Made by a program: the position numbers and the translations under genes. 40,921 bases of DNA from a virus: UHGV virus genome UHGV-0093931; one strand, written 5' to 3'. Positions 3,776-12,904 of the stretch are shown piece by piece. Below the pieces are notes generated by a model. The model was not told the DNA's origin. It made no database searches and was given only the letters and a program-made list of their open reading frames with translations. The stretch's first letter is position 1; each line of letters starts with the position of its first letter.

Positions 3776-4026
3776 TGTGCAGTTCCCTGTCTTGCTCTAT
3801 TCAACAGCTGGTTAAACATCATGGTTAGGCTGTTACTACACCCAAACGGCATATCGTTAACACGGTATGTTGGAATGCCCTTGCGAACACCAGACTTCAC
3901 GATCCGGCCGGTGCCATAGAGTTGCGATAATGCGCCAGCGACCGCGGGTGTCTTTTTGTTCATACCTTTGGCGATTTCACCGCTGGTGGTATTCGGATGA
4001 GCCTGGAGATATTCAAATACGGTCAT
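3772..4026 (-). CDS. small putative winged-helix DNA-binding protein
   Basis: 84-aa ORF; its start at 4024-4026 overlaps the upstream stop (4023-4025) as ATGA; helix-turn-helix-like segment ...TSGEIAKGMNKKTPAVAGALSQL... Confidence 0.5.
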   Translation of the reverse strand: MTVFEYLQAHPNTTSGEIAKGMNKKTPAVAGALSQLYGTGRIVKSGVRKGIPTYRVNDMPFGCSNSLTMMFNQLLNRARQGTAQ

Positions 4027-5737: not shown

Positions 5738-6109
5738 TCACTGAGCCGCTTTAAGCTTTCCATCCACCGCGCCAGTGATCCCGAACAACTGACCCTGATC
5801 TTCCTGCAGGATGGTGAGCTTCCCGCCTTTGTTGACCCACATCGGGGTTTCGGTTGTGTCCTCTTCGGAGGCTTTACCACGCGGTGTTGGGGTGCTGTAG
5901 TTCAGCTTGTGCTTGATCTTGACGCGCTTCTCTTCAACGGAATTACCCATGCGCTCAAAATCAAATGTGAGGACTACTTTGCCTTTGTTGCCGTTGTTCA
6001 GAACGCCAAGCGCGGTGGTATTAAGTGCTGCCGCGATTTTGTTCATGAACACGCCGGCATCCAGTTCGCCAAGAAAATCTGGCACTACGGTCATGCGGTC
6101 ATTACTCAT
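5738..6109 (-). CDS. hypothetical prophage early protein (YfdP-like position)
   Basis: 123-aa ORF; GAGGG RBS upstream of the ATG at 6107-6109; first clear gene after the noncoding region downstream of the putative pL. Confidence 0.6.
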   Translation of the reverse strand: MSNDRMTVVPDFLGELDAGVFMNKIAAALNTTALGVLNNGNKGKVVLTFDFERMGNSVEEKRVKIKHKLNYSTPTPRGKASEEDTTETPMWVNKGGKLTILQEDQGQLFGITGAVDGKLKAAQ

Positions 6110-6270
6110 GGTTTTACCCTCGTTAAGGCGGCTGCAACCGCCGAACTTTCTCCATACACAACAGAGAAGAGCACCTGCATTGGTCGGCGGCTTGCAGGGA
6201 CCGCTTTCTTTTTGCCCGGGTGGATTGGGTTATGAGCCCGTCGCCCGGTGATGCTCTTTTCTGTTGCGTA

Positions 6271-6340
6271 AAAAGGGCGGTACCGAGGTAGAACATTATC
6301 TTCGTCCCCCTTGCATAAGGTTGAAGGCCCAGGTACCGCC
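6271..6340 (-). terminator. candidate terminator-like structure on the leftward transcript
   Basis: Plus-strand GGGCGGTACC (6276-6285) pairs with GGTACCGCC (6332-6340) around an inner CCTT-ATGC-AAGG hairpin; on the minus strand the structure is followed by a U-run (plus-strand AAAAA at 6271-6275). The loop is large for a classical intrinsic terminator. Confidence 0.3.
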
Positions 6341-7289
6341 AAGACTACACACATGGAACTACGGTTATCACAGTCCTCAGCGTGATTTGGTTGTGGTTGC
6401 TGGTGCTGAACTCCAGCTCAGTGGCGCGGTGTTTCAATATCGTAACCGCCCGTTCCATCCGCGTTCGATCAGTCCGTATGCTCGCTTAGAACGTTTCGCC
6501 TGCTTATCTTTTCTCAACCGTTTGACGGTCAGCCCCGCCATTCACCACAACGAAGAGAGCACTGCCGGTATCCGAATTGAACGGACCTTTTCGTTGCCCA
6601 TCACCGCTATCTGTATAGCGGTGGCAGGGATTGAACCTGCCGTTATGCCTTGCTCGTCAATGCTCTCATCGTTGTGTGCTGACCTTACAGCCAGCATGGT
6701 TGGAATGAAGACGCATCACGACTTTTCACCAACTGGGCGGGATCACCATGAAAGAGCCGCCCCTTTAGCCTTTCATGCTCCCCATCTTTCTAGGTAGTCA
6801 ATGCCTCCAGTTGGGCATACAACCTTCGGTTATCGCTCCGTCGTCAGCGCCACTCTCCAGGACATTTATAAGGACCGTCTCCAAGTGGTAACTCTTCCAG
6901 TCCCGGTAAGCATCCTGCGAGATGCTTACCATGACCGGCTGATCTTCCCTGAAAAAGGCTGGCGGTTACCGGACAAACGGGAAAACACCGGGCCGCCAGA
7001 ACAGGGAGTTACTTGTTATTGCTTTGGCCTGCTTTTAACCACATCAGGCGCGGTGGTAGGTATCTTCGGGCGGGGTGCTAAGGGGGTGATTAGCCCTTGC
7101 CCTTAACACTCCTGCTGGTTTTGGTATTCCTGGCTTGGGTATCGCCACCAGCTATAGGAATTTGACTACGAGTTGCGGTTAATCAGGCCGCGCCTCTGTT
7201 ACCCCTCCCGAAGACACCTGTCAGCGAATCATCCGGTTATTCATATGCCACCGGCGGCTACTTCGTGGGCGTCCTGCCTGTTCGCTGTT

Positions 7290-7381
7290 GATGAATAAAA
7301 TCTAACTTAACTTAGCTTTTAGATCAAGAAAAAACACCAAACTATTCTTAGCTTGATGTTAAGAGGAAGGTTAGAGGTGGG
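7290..7381 (-). promoter_or_regulatory. putative OL/pL region
   Basis: AT-rich segment just downstream of cI; minus strand reads TTGATC-17 nt-TAGATT; the 14-mer CTAACTTAACTTAG resembles the CTAAGCAATCTTAG palindrome in the cI-cro intergenic region. Confidence 0.45.
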
Positions 7382-8008
7382 TTAAAGCTCGTACTGAACG
7401 CCTTTGACAACGCCGATGATCAGGCAATTACCGTTAATTGAAATGTTTGGATAGCGTGGATTTAAGGGAACTAAGAACTTTTGAGGCCCATCGATGACAA
7501 GTTTTTTTACAGTAGCCTCGTTTGTCCCATCAAGCCTGGCTACGACTATCTTTCCATGAAGTGGCTCTGCATCTGGATCTACTATGACTGTTGCCCCTTC
7601 AGGGATTGTCGGGAGGCCATTAGGGTTTGTCATCGAATCACCTTTAACCTCCAATGCAAAGGAGCTATCCCCTATGCGGAGTGATGTCTCTATCCACTTA
7701 TCTACTTCGCTGAAAACTTCTGCTGCTTTACATTCTGTAAACTGTCCAGCCTGAACCCAGGATATCACCGGAATCCTTCGCATCTTGGTTATCAGATTGC
7801 CTTCAAATTCAGTGCCATAAAGTATGTAATCAATTGATGTGTTGAAATACTTTGCAAGTTTCGCAAGTGACTCGCCTCCAGGCACATTAACGTCTTTTTC
7901 CCAATACCCAACCGCCACATCACTAACACCGCAGAACTTACCCAGTTCTTTCTGCGAGGTTTTGGTTATGCGCCTGAGAGCTTTGATGCGCTGACCGACA
8001 GTTTCCAT
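7382..8008 (-). CDS. cI: CI-type repressor (XRE-family HTH with LexA-like S24 peptidase domain)
   Basis: 208 aa; N-terminal HTH (...TSQKELGKFCGVSDVAVGYWE...) and C-terminal autocleavage-type domain; divergent from a cro-like gene. Confidence 0.9.
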   Translation of the reverse strand: METVGQRIKALRRITKTSQKELGKFCGVSDVAVGYWEKDVNVPGGESLAKLAKYFNTSIDYILYGTEFEGNLITKMRRIPVISWVQAGQFTECKAAEVFSEVDKWIETSLRIGDSSFALEVKGDSMTNPNGLPTIPEGATVIVDPDAEPLHGKIVVARLDGTNEATVKKLVIDGPQKFLVPLNPRYPNISINGNCLIIGVVKGVQYEL

Positions 8009-8110
8009 TTGAACACCATAAATAAATTAAAAGGCTAAGCAATCTTAGTTTTTATTGACCAAAGTTAGATTGGTTATTAATATCTAATCAAACTTAGCTA
8101 AGGAGGCGTT
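8009..8110. promoter_or_regulatory. putative OR operator/promoter region (pRM/pR)
   Basis: Palindromes CTAAGCAATCTTAG (8035-8048), TAGAT-N11-ATCTA (8066-8086) and CTTAGCTAAG (8093-8102); plus-strand TTGACC (8055-8060), 17-nt spacer, TAATAT (8078-8083) ahead of cro. Confidence 0.55.
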
Positions 8111-8338
8111 ATGACAACCGATGATATTGAAAACTACTTCGGCAGTACTGAGAAGGTTGCCGAATTTTTTGGAATCACAAGCGAGGCTGTTTACCAGTGG
8201 CGTAATAGAACTGGTCGCCTTATCCCAAAAGGGCGTGCAGCTGAAGCAGCATATCGAACCGGGGGGAAATTGGTTTTTCATCCCGACCTTTACGAAAAGC
8301 GTAGCGATGCTTCAGTAAAACTCAAACCACAGGAATAA
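8111..8338 (+). CDS. cro: Cro-like repressor (P22 Cro-like HTH)
   Basis: 75 aa; ...FGSTEKVAEFFGITSEAVYQWRNR... HTH; divergent from cI across the operator region; AGGAGG RBS. Confidence 0.8.
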   Translation: MTTDDIENYFGSTEKVAEFFGITSEAVYQWRNRTGRLIPKGRAAEAAYRTGGKLVFHPDLYEKRSDASVKLKPQE

Positions 8339-8348
8339 GGGGGGAGCT

Positions 8349-8900
8349 GTGGGTAACGAACCTATTTGGAAAGTCGAACGTCAGCCAGCCTGGCTGGTGG
8401 CGGCGATAAAAAAAACGATCACCGATCTTCCTGGTGGTTATGCCGAGGCGGCGGAATGGTTGGGCGTGACAGAGAACGCATTGTTCAACCGCCTTCGTGT
8501 TGACGGCGACCAAATCTTCCCGCTGGGCTGGGCAATGGTTTTACAACGTGCTGGTGGTTCAACTCATATTGCTGATGCCGTTGCGCGCCATTCTCAGGGC
8601 GTATTTGTACCGCTGGCAGACGTTGATGATCTGGATAACGCCGATATAAACCAGCGCCTGATGGAGTCCATTGAATGGATAGGTCGTCATTCTAATTTTG
8701 TACGTAAAGCCACGGCTGATGGGGTAATTGACGCAGATGAGCGTGCTCAGATTGAGGAAAACAGCTATCAGGTTATCGCGAAGTTCCAGGAGCACGTAAC
8801 GCTTCTTTATCGAGTTTTTTGTGTCGCTGAAAAGAGTGACGCCCGCGAGTGTGCAGCTCCGGGCGCCTTGGCGAACAACTCTTCGAGTATGGAGAAATAA
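8349..8900 (+). CDS. putative CII-like early regulator (phage 186 CII/CP76-like)
   Basis: 183-aa ORF directly after cro, GTG start with GGGGGGAG RBS; family assignment from memory only. Confidence 0.5.
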   Translation: MGNEPIWKVERQPAWLVAAIKKTITDLPGGYAEAAEWLGVTENALFNRLRVDGDQIFPLGWAMVLQRAGGSTHIADAVARHSQGVFVPLADVDDLDNADINQRLMESIEWIGRHSNFVRKATADGVIDADERAQIEENSYQVIAKFQEHVTLLYRVFCVAEKSDARECAAPGALANNSSSMEK

Positions 8901-9241: not shown

Positions 9242-10099
9242 ATGAGCACTAAATTAACCGGCTACGTATGGGATGGTTGCGCGGCGTCGGGCATGAAGTT
9301 GTCTAGTGTCGCGATCATGGCTCGCCTCGCTGATTTCAGCAGCGATGAGGGAGTGTGCTGGCCGTCCATTGAAACTATTGCTCGCCAGCTTGGCGCAGGG
9401 CCGAGCACGATCAGAACGGCAATCGCAAAGCTTGAAAAAGATGGCTGGCTCACGCGTACACAGCGCCGTAATGGTAACCGTAATGCGTCGAACGTGTACC
9501 GCCTGAATGTGGCGAAACTTCAGGCTGCCGCATTTTCTCAACTGTCAGATTCTGACACGTCAAAATCTGACGCATCAAATTTTGACGCCTCAAAAACTGA
9601 CCCGTCGAAATCTGGCAAAAACGGCGGTTTTGACCCGTCAGAATCTGGCGGGGATCCGTCAGTAAAATCAAAACAAGATCCACAAGTAACTTCAAAACCC
9701 TCTTGTCCGGTTGCGGCGCAACCAGACCCTGAAGTCGTGATTACTGATCAGGCAATTTTGGTTCTGACCCATTTGAACCAAATCAGCGGATCCCGGTATC
9801 AGAAATCAAAAACATCCCTGGAGAACATCCGTGCCCGACTGCGTGAGGGATACAGCGTTGCAGACCTGCAACTTGTTATCGACCTGAAGCATGAGCACTG
9901 GCACGAGAACGACGAGCAGTACCAGTACATGCGACCGGAAACGCTGTTTGGCCCGAAGAAATTCGAGAGCTATCTGCAAAGCGCTACCCGCTGGGAGCAG
10001 AAGGGACGGCCTAAACGTGCTGACTGGGGAGCGAAAAAGCGCGATGTGATGGCTTTTGGTCCGGTTGAAACAACGATTCCAGAGGGGTTCAGAGGATGA
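9242..10099 (+). CDS. phage replication initiator (O-like, N-terminal wHTH)
   Basis: 285 aa; N-terminal DNA-binding region; a low-complexity middle (SDSDTSKSDASNFDASKTDPSKSG) is encoded by the iteron repeats; first gene after the immunity/CII block. Confidence 0.75.
   Translation: MSTKLTGYVWDGCAASGMKLSSVAIMARLADFSSDEGVCWPSIETIARQLGAGPSTIRTAIAKLEKDGWLTRTQRRNGNRNASNVYRLNVAKLQAAAFSQLSDSDTSKSDASNFDASKTDPSKSGKNGGFDPSESGGDPSVKSKQDPQVTSKPSCPVAAQPDPEVVITDQAILVLTHLNQISGSRYQKSKTSLENIRARLREGYSVADLQLVIDLKHEHWHENDEQYQYMRPETLFGPKKFESYLQSATRWEQKGRPKRADWGAKKRDVMAFGPVETTIPEGFRG
9544..9651. repeat. iteron array (putative replication origin) inside the initiator gene
   Basis: Five tandem 15-bp units at 9544, 9559, 9574, 9589 and 9604 (gtcaGATTCTGACac, gtcaAAATCTGACgc, atcaAATTTTGACgc, ctcaAAAACTGACcc, gtcgAAATCTGGCaa) and a sixth copy at about 9637-9651; AT-richer DNA follows. 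Confidence 0.7.
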
Positions 10100-10977
10100 C
10101 GTTAAACAAATATTGCCAGGCGCTGGTGGCACTACGTAGCCAACCAGCCCACGAATTGAAAGAAGTTGGCGATCAGTGGCGGACACCGGACCTGCTTTTT
10201 TGGGGCATTAATGCGATGTTCGGCCCGCTGACGCTGGATCTCTTTGCTGATGACGATAACGCTAAGTGCCCTGTGTGGTACACCGCCGAAGATAACGCGC
10301 TGGTACAAGATTGGGCGGAAATGCTGGAATCAATCGGCGGGGCCGCATTCGGTAATCCACCATATAGCCGTTCGCAGTACCACGAGAAACAGGCGATAAC
10401 CGGCATGACCCACATCATGGATCGCACAATGGAAATGCGTGAAAAGAGTGGGCGTTACGTGTTCCTCATTAAAGCGGCGACAAGTGAAACATGGTGGCCG
10501 GAAGATGCCGATCACATCATGTTTATCCGCGGTCGTATTGGCTTCGATCTCCCTGTGTGGTTTGTTCCTGCTGATGATAAGCAGAAGCCCACTGGTGCTT
10601 TCTTTGCTGGTGCTATTGCAATCTTTGATAAGTCATGGCGCGGAGAGCGTTTCAGCTACATCAGCCGTACCGAACTGGAAGAAAAAGGGCGGGCGTTTAT
10701 GGCTTTGGCTCAATTCGCCGTTGGTAAAGAGCAAACAATTGCAATGCAGGCAGCTAAGGAACCAGCAGCAACACCGGAAACTGAGTCACGAATTTGGCCT
10801 CTCGAGGTTGGTCTGGTGTTTAACCAGGTGGAAGGCGTTGATGTATTGAGCGAGGCCCAGCAGAACAAACTGAAAGCCAACATCAATCAACTCTGGCTGG
10901 AACGAACGGCCACCAGCGAAATTATCACAATTGCGCGTGGTCTTGTTGGCAGCATGCAGGGGGTAACCCATGCGTGA
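10096..10977 (+). CDS. phage N6-adenine DNA methyltransferase (Dam-like)
   Basis: 293 aa; ...WRTPDLLF... and catalytic ...GNPPYS... motif typical of N6-A methyltransferases. Confidence 0.8.
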   Translation: MTLNKYCQALVALRSQPAHELKEVGDQWRTPDLLFWGINAMFGPLTLDLFADDDNAKCPVWYTAEDNALVQDWAEMLESIGGAAFGNPPYSRSQYHEKQAITGMTHIMDRTMEMREKSGRYVFLIKAATSETWWPEDADHIMFIRGRIGFDLPVWFVPADDKQKPTGAFFAGAIAIFDKSWRGERFSYISRTELEEKGRAFMALAQFAVGKEQTIAMQAAKEPAATPETESRIWPLEVGLVFNQVEGVDVLSEAQQNKLKANINQLWLERTATSEIITIARGLVGSMQGVTHA

Positions 10978-12904
10978 GATTATCGTTGATAACTTTGCTG
11001 GTGGCGGTGGTGCATCAACGGGTATTGAACTGGCGATCGGACGCAGCGTGGATATTGCGATCAACCACGACGAAAACGCCATTGCGATGCACAAGACGAA
11101 CCACCCTGACACACTGCATTACTGTGAATCCGTATTTGACGTGGATCCGGTAGCCGCCACCGGCGGCAATCCTGTTGGCCTGGCATGGTTTAGCCCGGAC
11201 TGCCGACACTTCTCAAAGGCCAAAGGCGCAAAGCCTGTGAAAAAAGAGATACGCGGTCTGGCCTGGATCGTTCTGCGTTGGGCACTGGCGAAGCGACCGC
11301 GCGTGATGATGCTGGAGAACGTGGAAGAGTTTAAAACGTGGGGACCGCTGCTGGCCGATGAAATGCGTCCAGACCCTGCCCGCACTGGCGAAACATTCAA
11401 TGCTTTTGTCGGCATGCTTTCCACTGGCATTCCTGCCGATCACCCGGCACTGGCGGAGGTCTGCGAATTTCTTGCTATTGATCCTGGCAGCACGCAGGCC
11501 AAACAGCTGGTGGAAGGGCTTGGATATGATGTTGATTATCGCGAACTGCGCGCGTGTGATTACGGCGCGCCGACGATCCGCAAACGCTTCTTCATGGTTA
11601 TGCGCTGCGATGGTTGCCCTATTCAGTGGCCTGTTGTAACCCATGGGGATCCCAAGTCACTGGAGGTGCAGAGCGGCAGGCTGATGCCATGGCGTACCGC
11701 TGCGGAATGTATCGACTGGAATGTTCCGGCTCTGTCCATCTTCGACCGCAAAAAACCGCTGGCAGAGAACACTCTGAAGCGGATCGCACGCGGCATACAG
11801 CGCTTTGTTATCGAAAGTGCGTCGCCGTTTATCGTGAAGTGCAACCACACGAGCTCAAAAAATGCGTATGACGCTTTTCGCGGACAGTCACTGAATGAGC
11901 CATTACAGACCATTACTAAAAAACTCGGCTACGCGTTAGCCGTTCCACACCTTACAAAATTCCGCACTGGCGCAACCGGGCAGCCCGTTACCGAACCTGT
12001 TCCGACGGTAACCGCTGGCACGTCAAAACGCCCGGGCGGGAACGGGCATGCTCTCGGGATTGTTGAGGCTGCATTGACACCATTCCTGGCGGGTAATGGT
12101 GGTAGTGAATACCAGGCTAAACCGCGCCCGCTGAATAAACCTGCTCATACCATTCTGAAGCAATCCCGAGCCTGTCTTGTTGCGCCAGTGATAGCCCGCC
12201 AGTTTGGGGCCAGCGTCGGCCACCGTGCAGACGAACCGAGCGCAACCATCACCGCTGGTGGTGGCGGTAAATCTCAACTGGTAACGCCTACGCTGATTCA
12301 GATGGGTTATGGCGAACGACCTGGACAAGAACCGCGTGTGCTGCGACTGGATAACCCGCTGGGGACCGTTACTGCAGGCGGAAATAAATTTGCGACGGTG
12401 AGCGCATTCCTGGCGAAACACTACGGCGGTAACTATACGGGGCCGGGTGTCAGTATGGATGAACCCGCGCATTCAGTGACCACTGTCGACCATCATGCGG
12501 TAGTTGCCTCTCATCTGGTGAAACTGCGTGGAACATGCCGCGACGGGCAACGCCTTGATGTGCCAATGCCAACAATCACTGCTGGTGGCCAACACGTGGG
12601 TGAGGTACGCACATTTCTCGAGACGTATTGCGGGGAAAGTGACGATGAATGGCTGGTAACGATCGATGGGGTTAAATACCAGATCGTTGATATCGGAATG
12701 CGCATGTTGCAGCCGCATGAACTCTACAAAGCGCAGGGCTTCCCGGATGGTTACGTTATTGATCAGGACTACCGTGGAAATCGCTATGCAAAAGATAAGC
12801 AGGTAGCCCGCTGCGGTAATGCGGTACCACCACCATTCGCCCGGGCGCTGGTTGAGGCAAATCTTCCGGAACTGTGTGCAGTGCAACAGCAGGAGGTGGC
12901 ATGA
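10970..12904 (+). CDS. DNA (cytosine-5)-methyltransferase with large variable region
   Basis: 644 aa; motif I FAGGGG, ENV motif (MLENVEEF) and C-terminal ...RCGNAVPP... (motif X); the catalytic Cys is in an atypical ...SPDCRHFS... context; long insert between conserved blocks. Confidence 0.8.
   Translation: MREIIVDNFAGGGGASTGIELAIGRSVDIAINHDENAIAMHKTNHPDTLHYCESVFDVDPVAATGGNPVGLAWFSPDCRHFSKAKGAKPVKKEIRGLAWIVLRWALAKRPRVMMLENVEEFKTWGPLLADEMRPDPARTGETFNAFVGMLSTGIPADHPALAEVCEFLAIDPGSTQAKQLVEGLGYDVDYRELRACDYGAPTIRKRFFMVMRCDGCPIQWPVVTHGDPKSLEVQSGRLMPWRTAAECIDWNVPALSIFDRKKPLAENTLKRIARGIQRFVIESASPFIVKCNHTSSKNAYDAFRGQSLNEPLQTITKKLGYALAVPHLTKFRTGATGQPVTEPVPTVTAGTSKRPGGNGHALGIVEAALTPFLAGNGGSEYQAKPRPLNKPAHTILKQSRACLVAPVIARQFGASVGHRADEPSATITAGGGGKSQLVTPTLIQMGYGERPGQEPRVLRLDNPLGTVTAGGNKFATVSAFLAKHYGGNYTGPGVSMDEPAHSVTTVDHHAVVASHLVKLRGTCRDGQRLDVPMPTITAGGQHVGEVRTFLETYCGESDDEWLVTIDGVKYQIVDIGMRMLQPHELYKAQGFPDGYVIDQDYRGNRYAKDKQVARCGNAVPPPFARALVEANLPELCAVQQQEVA

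Follow-up and report, generated by a model that had tools for sequence, protein, structure and literature searches.

The region around the divergent cI and cro genes in the 40,921-bp window (the whole stretch of DNA that was analysed) is very probably the lysis-lysogeny switch of a lambdoid prophage, a homologue of P22 immC with predicted CI operators as proposed in the initial annotation. Five short sites flanking the repressor gene are most likely the targets of the repressor. They had been read as OR and OL operators of a CI with a specificity of its own, and the sequence evidence agrees: the five positions head a matrix ranking of the window, they form a footprint in 12 related regions, their layout is that of P22, and the half-site covaries with the recognition helix of CI. 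The switch is of an ordinary, well-known P22-like kind, with one letter changed per half-site. What our analysis observed directly comprises the sites with their statistics, geometry, conservation and covariation, together with the protein families.

Predicted operator sites on both sides of cI

The cI gene (7382-8008, minus strand, 208 aa) starts at 8008 and cro (8111-8338, plus strand, 75 aa) starts at 8111, and the 14-mer CTAAGCAATCTTAG lies between them at 8035-8048, as had been claimed. The related 14-mer CTAACTTAACTTAG, which the initial annotation placed downstream of cI, is found there at 7302-7315, 67 nt past the cI stop codon (7382-7384). Searches with CTAAGNNNNCTTAG allowing up to one mismatch gave three matches in the window (7302, 8035 and 8084), all within 800 bp in the immunity region, against a shuffled expectation of 0.59 (100 shuffles, one of which reached three). 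With two mismatches the pattern is not enriched in the window (11 observed vs. 11.4 expected in shuffles), and the signal therefore lies only in near-perfect copies. When the whole 40.9-kb window was ranked with an operator scoring matrix built only from strong sites of other genomes, the top five matches were the five proposed operators, in the order OL1 (23.8 bits), OR1 (21.1), OR3 (19.9), OL2 (10.6) and OR2 (6.7); the next match scored 4.6. OR3, OR1 and OL1 share the dyad geometry described for P22 (PMC5175364, PMC4267663), with 5-bp xTAAG halves around a 4-bp centre, each as CTAAG-N4-CTTAG with at most one mismatch.

Between cI and cro, OR3 (8035-8048; 18-bp form 8033-8050) is a perfect dyad, OR2 (8060-8073, CAAAGTTAGATTGG) is a weak site inside the spacer of the PR promoter, and OR1 (8084-8097, CTAATCAAACTTAG; 18-bp form ATCTAATCAAACTTAGCT, 8082-8099) stands directly 3′ of the PR -10 and covers its expected start site. 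Their centres at 8041.5, 8066.5 and 8090.5 put OR3 and OR2 25 bp apart, and OR2 and OR1 24 bp apart. This is the P22-type arrangement of three OR sites about 23-25 bp apart over PR and PRM, with the OL sites on PL immediately past the repressor gene. The initial annotation had named OR3 only, in the right place, and we add OR2 and OR1. OR2 carries three mismatches to the ten specified bases and was missed by the mismatch search; it was recovered via its spacing, the Rahnella relatives (whose version is CTAATAAAGATTAG) and comparison with P22. Its register is kept in relatives, and the assignment rests on position and conservation.

Downstream of cI, OL consists of one strong and one weak site. 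OL1 (7302-7315; 18-bp form ATCTAACTTAACTTAGCT, 7300-7317) lies within the PL spacer, overlaps the PL -10 by 3 bp and is identical in its 14-mer to OR1 of the Rahnella relatives. OL2 (7338-7351, read on the minus strand as CTAAGAATAGTTTG) is weak, with two mismatches to the ten specified bases, and its assignment likewise rests on position and conservation. Placed upstream of the PL -35 at a distance of 36 bp from OL1, it shares sequence with the hairpin of the intrinsic terminator of the cI transcript (7333-7360, minus strand), which is followed by a T run (7332-7323) and whose G-U pairs, as read from the sequence, are possible in minus-strand RNA only. P22 and the relatives in Photorhabdus and Proteus likewise have a second operator, 34-35 bp from OL1.

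Further CTTAG/CTAAG and TAGAT/ATCTA palindromes had been listed as additional features. They exist, but each is either part of an operator or unconserved, and none is an element in its own right. The ATCTAA copies at 7300 and 8082 flank OL1 and OR1 on the outside in their 18-bp forms, TTAGAT at 8065-8070 falls within the weak OR2, and the CTTAG at 7347-7351 forms the good half-site of OL2. Conservation of the CTAAG at 8098 and the TAGAT at 7320 was sought in relatives, and none was found.

Conservation in related immunity regions

The comparison with prophages carrying a related CI, which had been suggested as a check, bears the assignment out: the sites are footprinted in 12 homologous immunity regions from eight genera, whose CI proteins are 82-95% identical and share the same recognition helix, GVSDVAVGYWEKD. 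The footprint set of 13 regions covers Escherichia, phage mEp460, Enterobacter, Kosakonia, Kluyvera, Serratia and Rahnella. Half-sites and promoter hexamers are largely unvarying in these regions and flanks vary; within the operators, the centres vary among relatives and the halves do not. Bases invariant in all 13 regions make up 9/10 of the OR3 half-sites, 6/6 of the PR -35 and 8/10 of the OR1 half-sites, compared with 3/26 in the neighbouring cI leader and none in the cro leader. The OR3 half-sites are unvarying in 11 of the 13 regions, ATCTAA and CTTAG are conserved at OR1, and all 14 bases of OL1 are invariant in 12 of 13, with both flanks variable. One relative, Serratia aquatilis, lacks both OL1 and the cro gene.

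At OL2, CAAAC-N4-CTTAG is kept in 11 of 13 regions. A hairpin occurs at the position of the cI terminator in all relatives, and the conservation of OL2 may be structural because the site sits in that hairpin. Part of the conservation overall is inheritance, since the related regions share ancestry (79-95% DNA identity); the variability of adjacent intergenic bases argues against inheritance being the whole story.

We give next to no weight to the explanation that the 14-mers are chance palindromes without function. A/T-rich intergenic DNA, the short length of CTAAG and CTTAG, and the shuffle-level frequency of the pattern with two mismatches speak for it, but three sites within 800 bp exceed the shuffled expectation at up to one mismatch, the best five matrix matches fall on the five predicted positions, the half-sites are invariant over eight genera between variable flanks, and spacing and promoter overlap match P22. 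Conservation effectively refutes an origin by chance and leaves the five sites as predicted operators.

Predicted promoters PR, PRM and PL

The -35/-10-like hexamers noted on both strands in the initial annotation proved to be real, with PR located on the plus strand and a conserved PL on the minus strand. PR (8055-8083) was found by consensus scan as TTGACC (8055-8060), a 17-bp spacer and TAATAT (8078-8083); across the 13 regions its -35 is invariant and its -10 reads TAnnAT in all. PL (7299-7327) was read from the sequence as TTGATC (7327-7322), a 17-bp spacer and TAGATT (7304-7299). It scores 8/12 to consensus, under the scan threshold; in most relatives its -35 is TTGACC, at a fixed distance, and in relatives a gene or conserved leader on the PL strand starts immediately past it. 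The predicted PRM -10 is TAAGAT (8042-8047, minus strand; ATCTTA on the plus strand) inside OR3, and all six of its bases are invariant in the 13 regions, including two in the otherwise variable OR3 centre. Its start would lie near 8036, giving a 28-nt cI leader with GGTG 5 nt upstream of the ATG. For PR and PL, starts are predicted near 8090 (plus strand) and near 7291 (minus strand). The consensus scan yielded promoter-like sites at no more than the shuffled level (2 vs. 2.7) and missed PL and PRM, which were both assigned from conservation and from analogy with P22.

The overlap with PL raises the alternative that only the sites between cI and cro are operators and that 7302-7315 is kept as part of the PL promoter, or as the site of another factor such as a host regulator reading GTTA repeats. 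OL1 overlaps the -10 and fills the PL spacer, so the needs of the promoter would by themselves hold part of it constant; GTTA-N-GTTA, the basis of ArcA box predictions in an mEp460-like prophage (PMC7719688), occurs within it; and OL2 is weak. Spacer bases of sigma-70 promoters normally vary, however, whereas every OL1 base is fixed in 12 of 13 regions. OL1 is also the best matrix match and identical to the Rahnella OR1, and the annotated P22 OL1 lies at the same place. Where relatives have OR sites of TTAAG, GTAGG or TTTAAAC type, moreover, the site at the OL1 position switches to the same type (TTAAG-type and GTAGG-type sites were both found there). We consider this alternative improbable, and retain OL1 as a predicted CI operator.

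The repressor, Cro and the predicted mechanism

CI consists of an N-terminal HTH domain (Pfam HTH_3, 8.9e-10, residues 8-62) and a C-terminal S24 domain of the autocleaving type (Peptidase_S24, 3.8e-27), and belongs to PHROG 4, transcriptional repressor. The N-terminal domain is nearest to the P22 C2 structures 1adr, 2r1j and 3jxb (E 4e-12 to 7e-12). The C-terminal domain aligns with lambda CI (E about 1e-25) in the pattern VQAG, G(D/N)SM and KKL, with the VQAG cleavage site, the GDSM serine and the KKL lysine preserved; lambda CI/P22 C2-type repressors are marked by an N-terminal HTH and by an S24 domain that carries an Ala-Gly cleavage site plus a Ser/Lys dyad, and their RecA-stimulated self-cleavage induces the prophage. 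Cro matches Pfam P22_Cro (1.2e-11), with N15 Cro (2hin) as its nearest solved structure, and a CII/CP76-type gene lies downstream of cro. Contigs with the exact CI number 587 and those with the exact Cro 998, most of them from Salmonella, Citrobacter and Enterobacter. Database annotation of these proteins reads only "LexA family", or even "cell division protein".

In the mechanism that we infer, which extends to CI binding, site affinities, occupancy order, promoter starts, cooperativity and induction, dimeric CI (P22 C2-like HTH plus LexA/lambda-CI-type S24) and the P22-type Cro would bind 18-bp dyads through contacted half-sites A-T/G-C-T-A-A-G, separated by four non-contacted A/T-rich base pairs. 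OR3, OR2 and OR1 would overlap PR and PRM, and CI on OR1 and OR2 would switch PR off. Since OR3 covers the predicted PRM -10, CI could repress its own gene from there, and Cro could shut cI off. OL1, over the PL spacer and -10, together with the weaker OL2 upstream of the PL -35, would repress the leftward early promoter, and repression would end once the SOS response made CI cleave itself at Ala-Gly.

Alternatively, Cro or a different phage regulator, for instance a CII-like protein, could be the main occupant of the sites, with the S24 protein reading something else. Lambdoid Cro and CI share operators, so that sequence alone cannot tell them apart, and the gene after cro is of the CII/CP76 type. 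In lambda and P22, nevertheless, CII-type activators recognise direct repeats, at PRE-like promoters located within cro or past it, and do not use dyads at PR or PL. Further evidence points to CI: the half-site letter changes with the CI recognition helix across homologues, and 5-bp halves around a 4-bp centre are the geometry of the P22 C2 complex (PMC5175364). This possibility appears highly unlikely to us, and CI is kept as the predicted reader of the sites.

Operator specificity

The P22 operator consensus ATTTAAGATATCTTAAAT has TTAAG half-sites and a non-contacted 4-bp centre (PMC5175364). The half-sites that define P22 immunity specificity are not those found here, which read CTAAG, and the operator core corresponds to the "3C" variant of the P22 operator. 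P22 repressor bound a T3-to-C variant only non-specifically and at least 16-fold more weakly (PMC4267663). Taken together, the CTAAG halves and this non-specific binding of 3C by the P22 repressor suggest that the region works like P22 immC without conferring P22 immunity, and they lend indirect support to the view that the predicted sites define an immunity group.

Among more distant CI homologues, the outer half-site base is T, C, G or A and changes with the recognition helix, at OR and OL alike: SHVAISQWEK goes with TTAAG, NRVTVTGWEK with GTAGG/GTAAG, EQPVISQLET with ATAAG, and SDVAVGYWEK, the helix found here, with CTAAG. In each of the distant homologues there are three OR sites at a spacing of 24-25 bp, and the OL sites match them. 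The pattern suggests that the outer half-site base and a few recognition-helix residues change together on a fixed P22-like scaffold, and the pairing of helix and half-site could serve to predict immunity groups from sequence or to supply orthogonal repressor-operator pairs. The value of the finding is practical, in that operators and promoters are assigned base by base for an immunity type often met in databases.

A structured RNA leader transcribed from PL

The switch itself will not surprise a specialist, and the possibly new biology is the adjoining structured RNA leader transcribed from PL. A structured element of 62 nt (7224-7285, minus strand) stands at the 5′ end of the PL transcript, its core (7285-7224) starting about 6-8 nt past the predicted PL start, and comprises two covarying helices around an invariant 25-nt core. 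It occurs on more than 120 viral contigs, right after PL-like promoters and beside unrelated repressors, and in 51 GenBank phages. A profile of sequence plus structure, built in this analysis as a covariance model, has a single match in the window (7208-7300, minus strand, 100 bits). The leader structure is visible by comparative analysis only, and single-sequence folding was uninformative (z-score 0.13). Rfam 15 gave no matches in the whole window at gathering thresholds, and permissive Rfam scans of 5900-8200 and 7180-7320 returned only noise (mir-30, FasX, a DicF fragment and SOX2OT); no known RNA family accounts for the region left of cI. A literature search for the core sequence of the element brought up unrelated matches only.

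Over its roughly 1.1 kb the PL leader has no credible ORF; further structure is present in a second module, which bears two T-loop-like hairpins. A hidden gene at 6110-7215 was considered and rejected: the small ORFs on both strands have no credible PHROG family, and one plus-strand frame, open over most of the interval, has stops in it and matches no family. sRNA-17 of E. coli RS218, reported in an mEp460-like prophage, was likewise rejected as the PL leader, its published alignment containing neither the element nor OL1. ARAGORN detected neither tRNA nor tmRNA in the window. A T-arm-like sequence lies at about 6630, and a homologous piece in phage SPN9TCW is annotated as "tRNA-Arg".

The closest parallel is putL of HK022, a structured RNA of roughly 60-70 nt that also lies immediately past PL with no recognisable N-type gene beside PL (PMC9378689). 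The put RNAs of HK022 are antiterminators that act in cis on terminators further downstream. HK022 putL forms two long stem-loops, whereas the element here has a closing helix around two small hairpins, and a search of the window with the covariance model found no second copy downstream of PR. With the putL sequence recovered from a published primer and the HK022 genome, local alignments to the element were short and at chance level, none being significant against HK022 putL or its immunity region; homology to HK022 put (putL/putR) was therefore rejected. We put forward tentatively that the 62-nt element may represent a new RNA class that acts in cis close to the promoter and modifies the RNA polymerase transcribing it. 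It would then be a functional analogue of HK022 put without homology to it, taking the place of N-nut antitermination in a large group of temperate phages of enterobacteria. On this same speculative reading, OL1, OL2 and PL might control a leader with no credible ORF instead of an N-type antiterminator gene.

Comparison with known immunity regions

With lambda, the region shares divergent cI and cro genes, a tripartite OR over PR and PRM, OL at PL and an S24 repressor of the autocleaving type. Lambda differs in its operators (17 bp, with an odd symmetry axis and unrelated sequence), in the fold of its Cro, in carrying rexA and rexB between cI and OL, and in a leaderless PRM transcript.

The E. 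coli phages mEp460, vB_EcoS-569R4, LLS and Kati share this cI-cro module, their DNA being about 79-80% identical to it, with OR3, OR2, OR1, OL1 and OL2 co-located and an identical CI recognition helix; the module is flanked on both sides by other mosaic sequence. Our literature search found no published operator analysis of these four phages.

The likeness to P22 is the most extensive. Both regions encode an HTH plus S24 repressor and a P22_Cro-family Cro, and both use 18-bp dyads with xTAAG half-sites and a 4-bp centre. From OR3, 6 bp lead to TTGAC(T/C) fused to OR2, followed by the -10 and then OR1, in a layout that agrees nearly base for base. P22 OR3 occupies the same position as OR3 here, with the PRM -10 TAAGAT at the same place inside it in the annotated P22 locus, and P22 OR2 (TAAAGATTCCTTTA) abuts the PR -35 as here and shares the T-to-A deviation in its left half. 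The annotated P22 PL (TTGACC-17-TAAATT) has the same geometry, OL1 sits at the same place in its spacer with OL2 35 bp away (36 bp here), and OL/PL directly follows the repressor gene in both, with no rex-like genes. P22 has OL1-3, whereas a third OL site was not recognised here; its PL leads into nutL and gene 24 rather than a structured non-coding leader; and its PRM transcript begins 4 nt before the ATG, compared with a predicted leader of about 28 nt with the Shine-Dalgarno-like GGTG here. The recognition helix differs at 4 of 10 residues (SDVAVGYWEK here, SNVAISQWER in P22), and the only systematic difference in operators and layout is operator position 3, which is C here (ATCTAAG) and T in P22 (ATTTAAG). 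Because this position is C-G rather than T-A, the assignments predict heteroimmunity, and the phage is expected to belong to an immunity type of its own, distinct from that of P22 and shared with phage mEp460.

Gene content of the immunity region

The window carries a lambdoid prophage. Its immunity region encodes a 208-aa CI repressor (cI, 7382–8008, minus strand) with HTH_3 and Peptidase_S24 domains, a divergent 75-aa Cro of the P22_Cro family (8111–8338, plus strand), and a CII/CP76-type protein (8349–8900). The repressor C-terminal domain aligns with lambda CI (E ~1e-25), with the VQAG cleavage site, GDSM serine and KKL lysine all kept, and the best solved-structure match of the N-terminal 72 residues is the P22 C2 DNA-binding domain (1adr, 2r1j, 3jxb; E 4e-12 to 7e-12). 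N15 Cro is the nearest solved relative of the window Cro. These domain and structure matches agree with the gene assignments of the initial annotation, which were right. The immunity region is very widespread among enterobacterial genomes: 587 contigs carry the exact CI and 998 the exact Cro. In public databases this Cro is widely labelled “cell division protein”; because it matches the P22_Cro family, the name was probably inherited from DicC-like proteins. Downstream of the replication genes lie two adjoining ORFs: 10096–10977 resembles a protein that the relative in E. coli 1943 has annotated as phage N-6-adenine methyltransferase, and 10970–12904 (644 aa) is, on visual inspection, a candidate DNA methyltransferase.

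Predicted operators and promoters flanking cI

The initial annotation had proposed CI operators on both sides of cI from two related 14-mers, and both were located exactly where it had placed them. With up to one mismatch, CTAAGNNNNCTTAG occurs three times in 40,921 bp (7302, 8035 and 8084; 0.59 expected), each time adjoining cI; at two mismatches the pattern is not enriched in the window. An 18-bp position matrix, built from strong sites of other genomes only and leaving out the window and all weak sites, returned as its five best matches in the window the predicted operators OL1 (7300–7317, 23.8 bits), OR1 (8082–8099, 21.1 bits), OR3 (8033–8050, 19.9 bits), OL2 (7336–7353, 10.6 bits) and OR2 (8058–8075, 6.7 bits), and the top unrelated match reached 4.6 bits. 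The weak operators OR2 and OL2 have in common a degenerate left half, ACCAAA(G/C), and the left half of OR2 shows the same T-to-A deviation in P22 (TAAAG; 2191–2208 of the annotated immC locus, L202) as in the window (CAAAG), which together suggest that weakness is itself conserved.

The putative PR consists of a −35 TTGACC (8055–8060), 17 bp, and a −10 TAATAT (8078–8083), with OR2 beginning at the final base of the −35 and OR1 one base past the −10. After the cI stop, a terminator hairpin (7360–7333) is followed by a T run; its G-U pairs are possible only in minus-strand RNA, so the cI transcript is what it terminates. Immediately past it on the minus strand lies TTGATC (7327–7322), 17 bp, TAGATT (7304–7299), which we assign as PL because relatives have on that strand, a few bases downstream, the start of a conserved leader or of a gene preceded by a Shine-Dalgarno of its own; the −35 reads TTGACC in most relatives. 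OL1 occupies the PL spacer and overlaps the −10, and OL2 sits 36 bp upstream of OL1, past the −35 and within the terminator hairpin. The OL–OR separation is ~730–780 bp. A consensus promoter scan was not significant (2 promoter-like sites vs. 2.7 in shuffles), and the proposed promoter assignments rest on conservation and comparison with annotated P22.

Conservation of the sites among relatives

E. coli strain 1943 carries the cI-cro module at 95.6% DNA identity, and mEp460 and several more E. coli phages carry it at ~79%. When one genome per species was scanned with protein guidance, the module also turned up in Enterobacter, Kosakonia, Kluyvera, Serratia and Rahnella, where CI is 82–94% identical. 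The recognition-helix stretch GVSDVAVGYWEKD is identical in all these relatives. When the cI-cro spacers of 13 sequences were aligned, invariance fell on the proposed sites (9/10 bases in the OR3 half-sites, 8/10 in those of OR1 and 6/6 in the PR −35 TTGACC); only 3 of the 26 bases from the cI start to OR3 are invariant, and none from OR1 to the cro start. The 4-bp operator centres differ (CAAT, TAAT, TTAT), except that the last two centre bases of OR3 plus CTTA form an invariant ATCTTA, TAAGAT on the cI strand. Past the end of cI, 12 of the 13 regions have AATCTAACTTAACTTAG without change between divergent flanks. In both Rahnella regions OR2 is CTAATAAAGATTAG, which fixes the register of this weak middle site. 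This footprint agrees with the reading of the initial annotation, and chance palindromes are excluded by the motif statistics and footprint. In Serratia aquatilis, cI and the OR-like sites CTAATTAATCTTAG and CTAATTTAAATTAG are kept, OL1 is absent, and another gene occupies the cro position; this may be the repressor of a decaying or domesticated prophage.

Covariation of predicted operators with the repressor

Distant homologues (33–47% identity) keep three OR sites 24–25 bp apart and the order cI, terminator, OL2, −35, OL1, and in them the outer half-site base and the recognition helix change together. Helix SHVAISQWEK accompanies TTAAG-N4-CTTAA in Xenorhabdus and Photorhabdus, NRVTVTGWEK accompanies GTAGG or GTAAG-N4-C(C/T)TAC in Proteus and Morganella, EQPVISQLET accompanies ATAAG-N4-CTTAT for a Pseudomonas-type protein, and SDVAVGYWEK accompanies CTAAG-N4-CTTAG in the window phage. 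In each phage the OL sites match the type of its own OR sites, which is the strongest argument from sequence only for the downstream site being a repressor operator beyond mere promoter sequence. That this site is promoter sequence only, or belongs to another factor, is unlikely, since all 14 of its bases are invariant, the same 14-mer stands at OR1 in Rahnella, and in other phages its type follows that of the OR sites. Sequence alone does not separate binding by Cro only, or by CII, from CI binding; it is disfavoured by the covariation of half-sites with the CI helix.

RNA modules in the predicted PL leader

PL leads into no N-like gene, and from ~7290 down to the next gene (5738–6109, PHROG 204) ~1.1 kb contains no family-supported ORF. 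This leader (6110–7215) is a mosaic whose separate modules are common to different phages. The E. coli relatives have a ClpX C4-type zinc-finger gene in this slot, and an IMG/VR contig (UViG_3300029782_000366) is 100% identical to the window over 6000–7300. We regard both modules described here as leads only.

The first (7208–7300, minus strand; structured core 7285–7224) opens the predicted PL transcript. Copies are present in 51 GenBank phages (e.g., ST64B, SfV, SfII, SfIV, ZF40, YeP1-3, SPN3UB, mEp237 and T5-like Providencia phages) and, among the matches listed, in >120 IMG/VR contigs, always a few bases past a −10-like hexamer. The upstream sequences resemble operators of different types, and the repressors alongside differ, in one case an unrelated 130-aa protein. 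Alignment of 98 distinct copies without gaps shows strong covariation in two helices that surround AGGCAGGACGCCCACGAAGUAGCC, a 25-nt core whose invariance partly reflects the search pattern used to collect copies. Pairs in the outer helix read GCGAA/UUCGC, CCACC/GGUGG or UCAUC/GAUGA, the inner helix has at least five pair types, and 92% of cells in the two helices are paired (covariation score 0.498 vs. 0.128 in shuffles and ≤0.11 with partners slid). A covariance model detects the element once in the window (100 bits) and nowhere downstream of PR. Rfam contains no match to it, and HK022 putL, which has a comparable position (PMC9378689), is not similar to it. Past the element, several relatives (L001 ~3900–3985, L006, L008) have a small hairpin and, next to that, GCTCTTTAACAA, a boxA-like antitermination sequence; in the window GGUGUCUUCGGGAGGGG stands there instead.

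In the second module (~130 nt, ~6676–6546, minus strand), a stem of ~20 bp that shows compensatory changes closes a structure holding two T-arm-like hairpins, GGUUCAAUCC and GUUCAAUUC, and a third, variable one. The module recurs in ~11 further viral contigs and in phages including SPN1S and EPP-1. ARAGORN and Rfam detected nothing in it; a homologous piece in SPN9TCW is annotated “tRNA-Arg”.

Comparison with P22

A literature search turned up no published study of the operators of this immunity type. We compared it with the P22 GenBank record annotating OR1-3, PR, PRM and its start site, OL1-3 and PL. The two switches are nearly identical in construction. P22 reads OR3 TTAAGTCATCTTAA, 6 bases, TTGACT fused to OR2 TAAAGATTCCTTTA, the −10, and OR1 TTAAGTGTTCTTTA, with operator starts 25 and 23 bp apart (25 and 24 bp in the window). 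Its annotated PRM −10, TAAGAT inside OR3, recurs as the same hexamer in the same place, and c2 is likewise directly followed by OL/PL (TTGACC-17-TAAATT, OL1 in the spacer, OL2 35 bp off). Homology to the P22 and lambda switches suggests that CI dimers bound to OR1 and OR2 would block PR, OR3 over the PRM −10 would allow negative autoregulation of cI as well as its shut-off by Cro, OL1 and OL2 would serve to block PL, and RecA-stimulated CI cleavage would induce the prophage.

The systematic difference is one operator base. P22 operators have the 18-bp consensus ATTTAAGATATCTTAAAT, in which the TTAAG half-sites are contacted but the centre is not (PMC5175364). The window sites read ATCTAAG...CTTAGAT/C, exactly the symmetric “3C” substitution of this operator; for that variant P22 repressor shows no more than non-specific binding, at least 16-fold weaker (PMC4267663). 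The recognition helices (window SDVAVGYWEK, P22 SNVAISQWER) differ at 4 of 10 positions and keep the valine, and C at operator position 3 would make the phage heteroimmune to P22. As a specialist would anticipate, the predicted architecture is that of a well-behaved P22-type immunity region whose operator letter is distinct, and mEp460 shares it.
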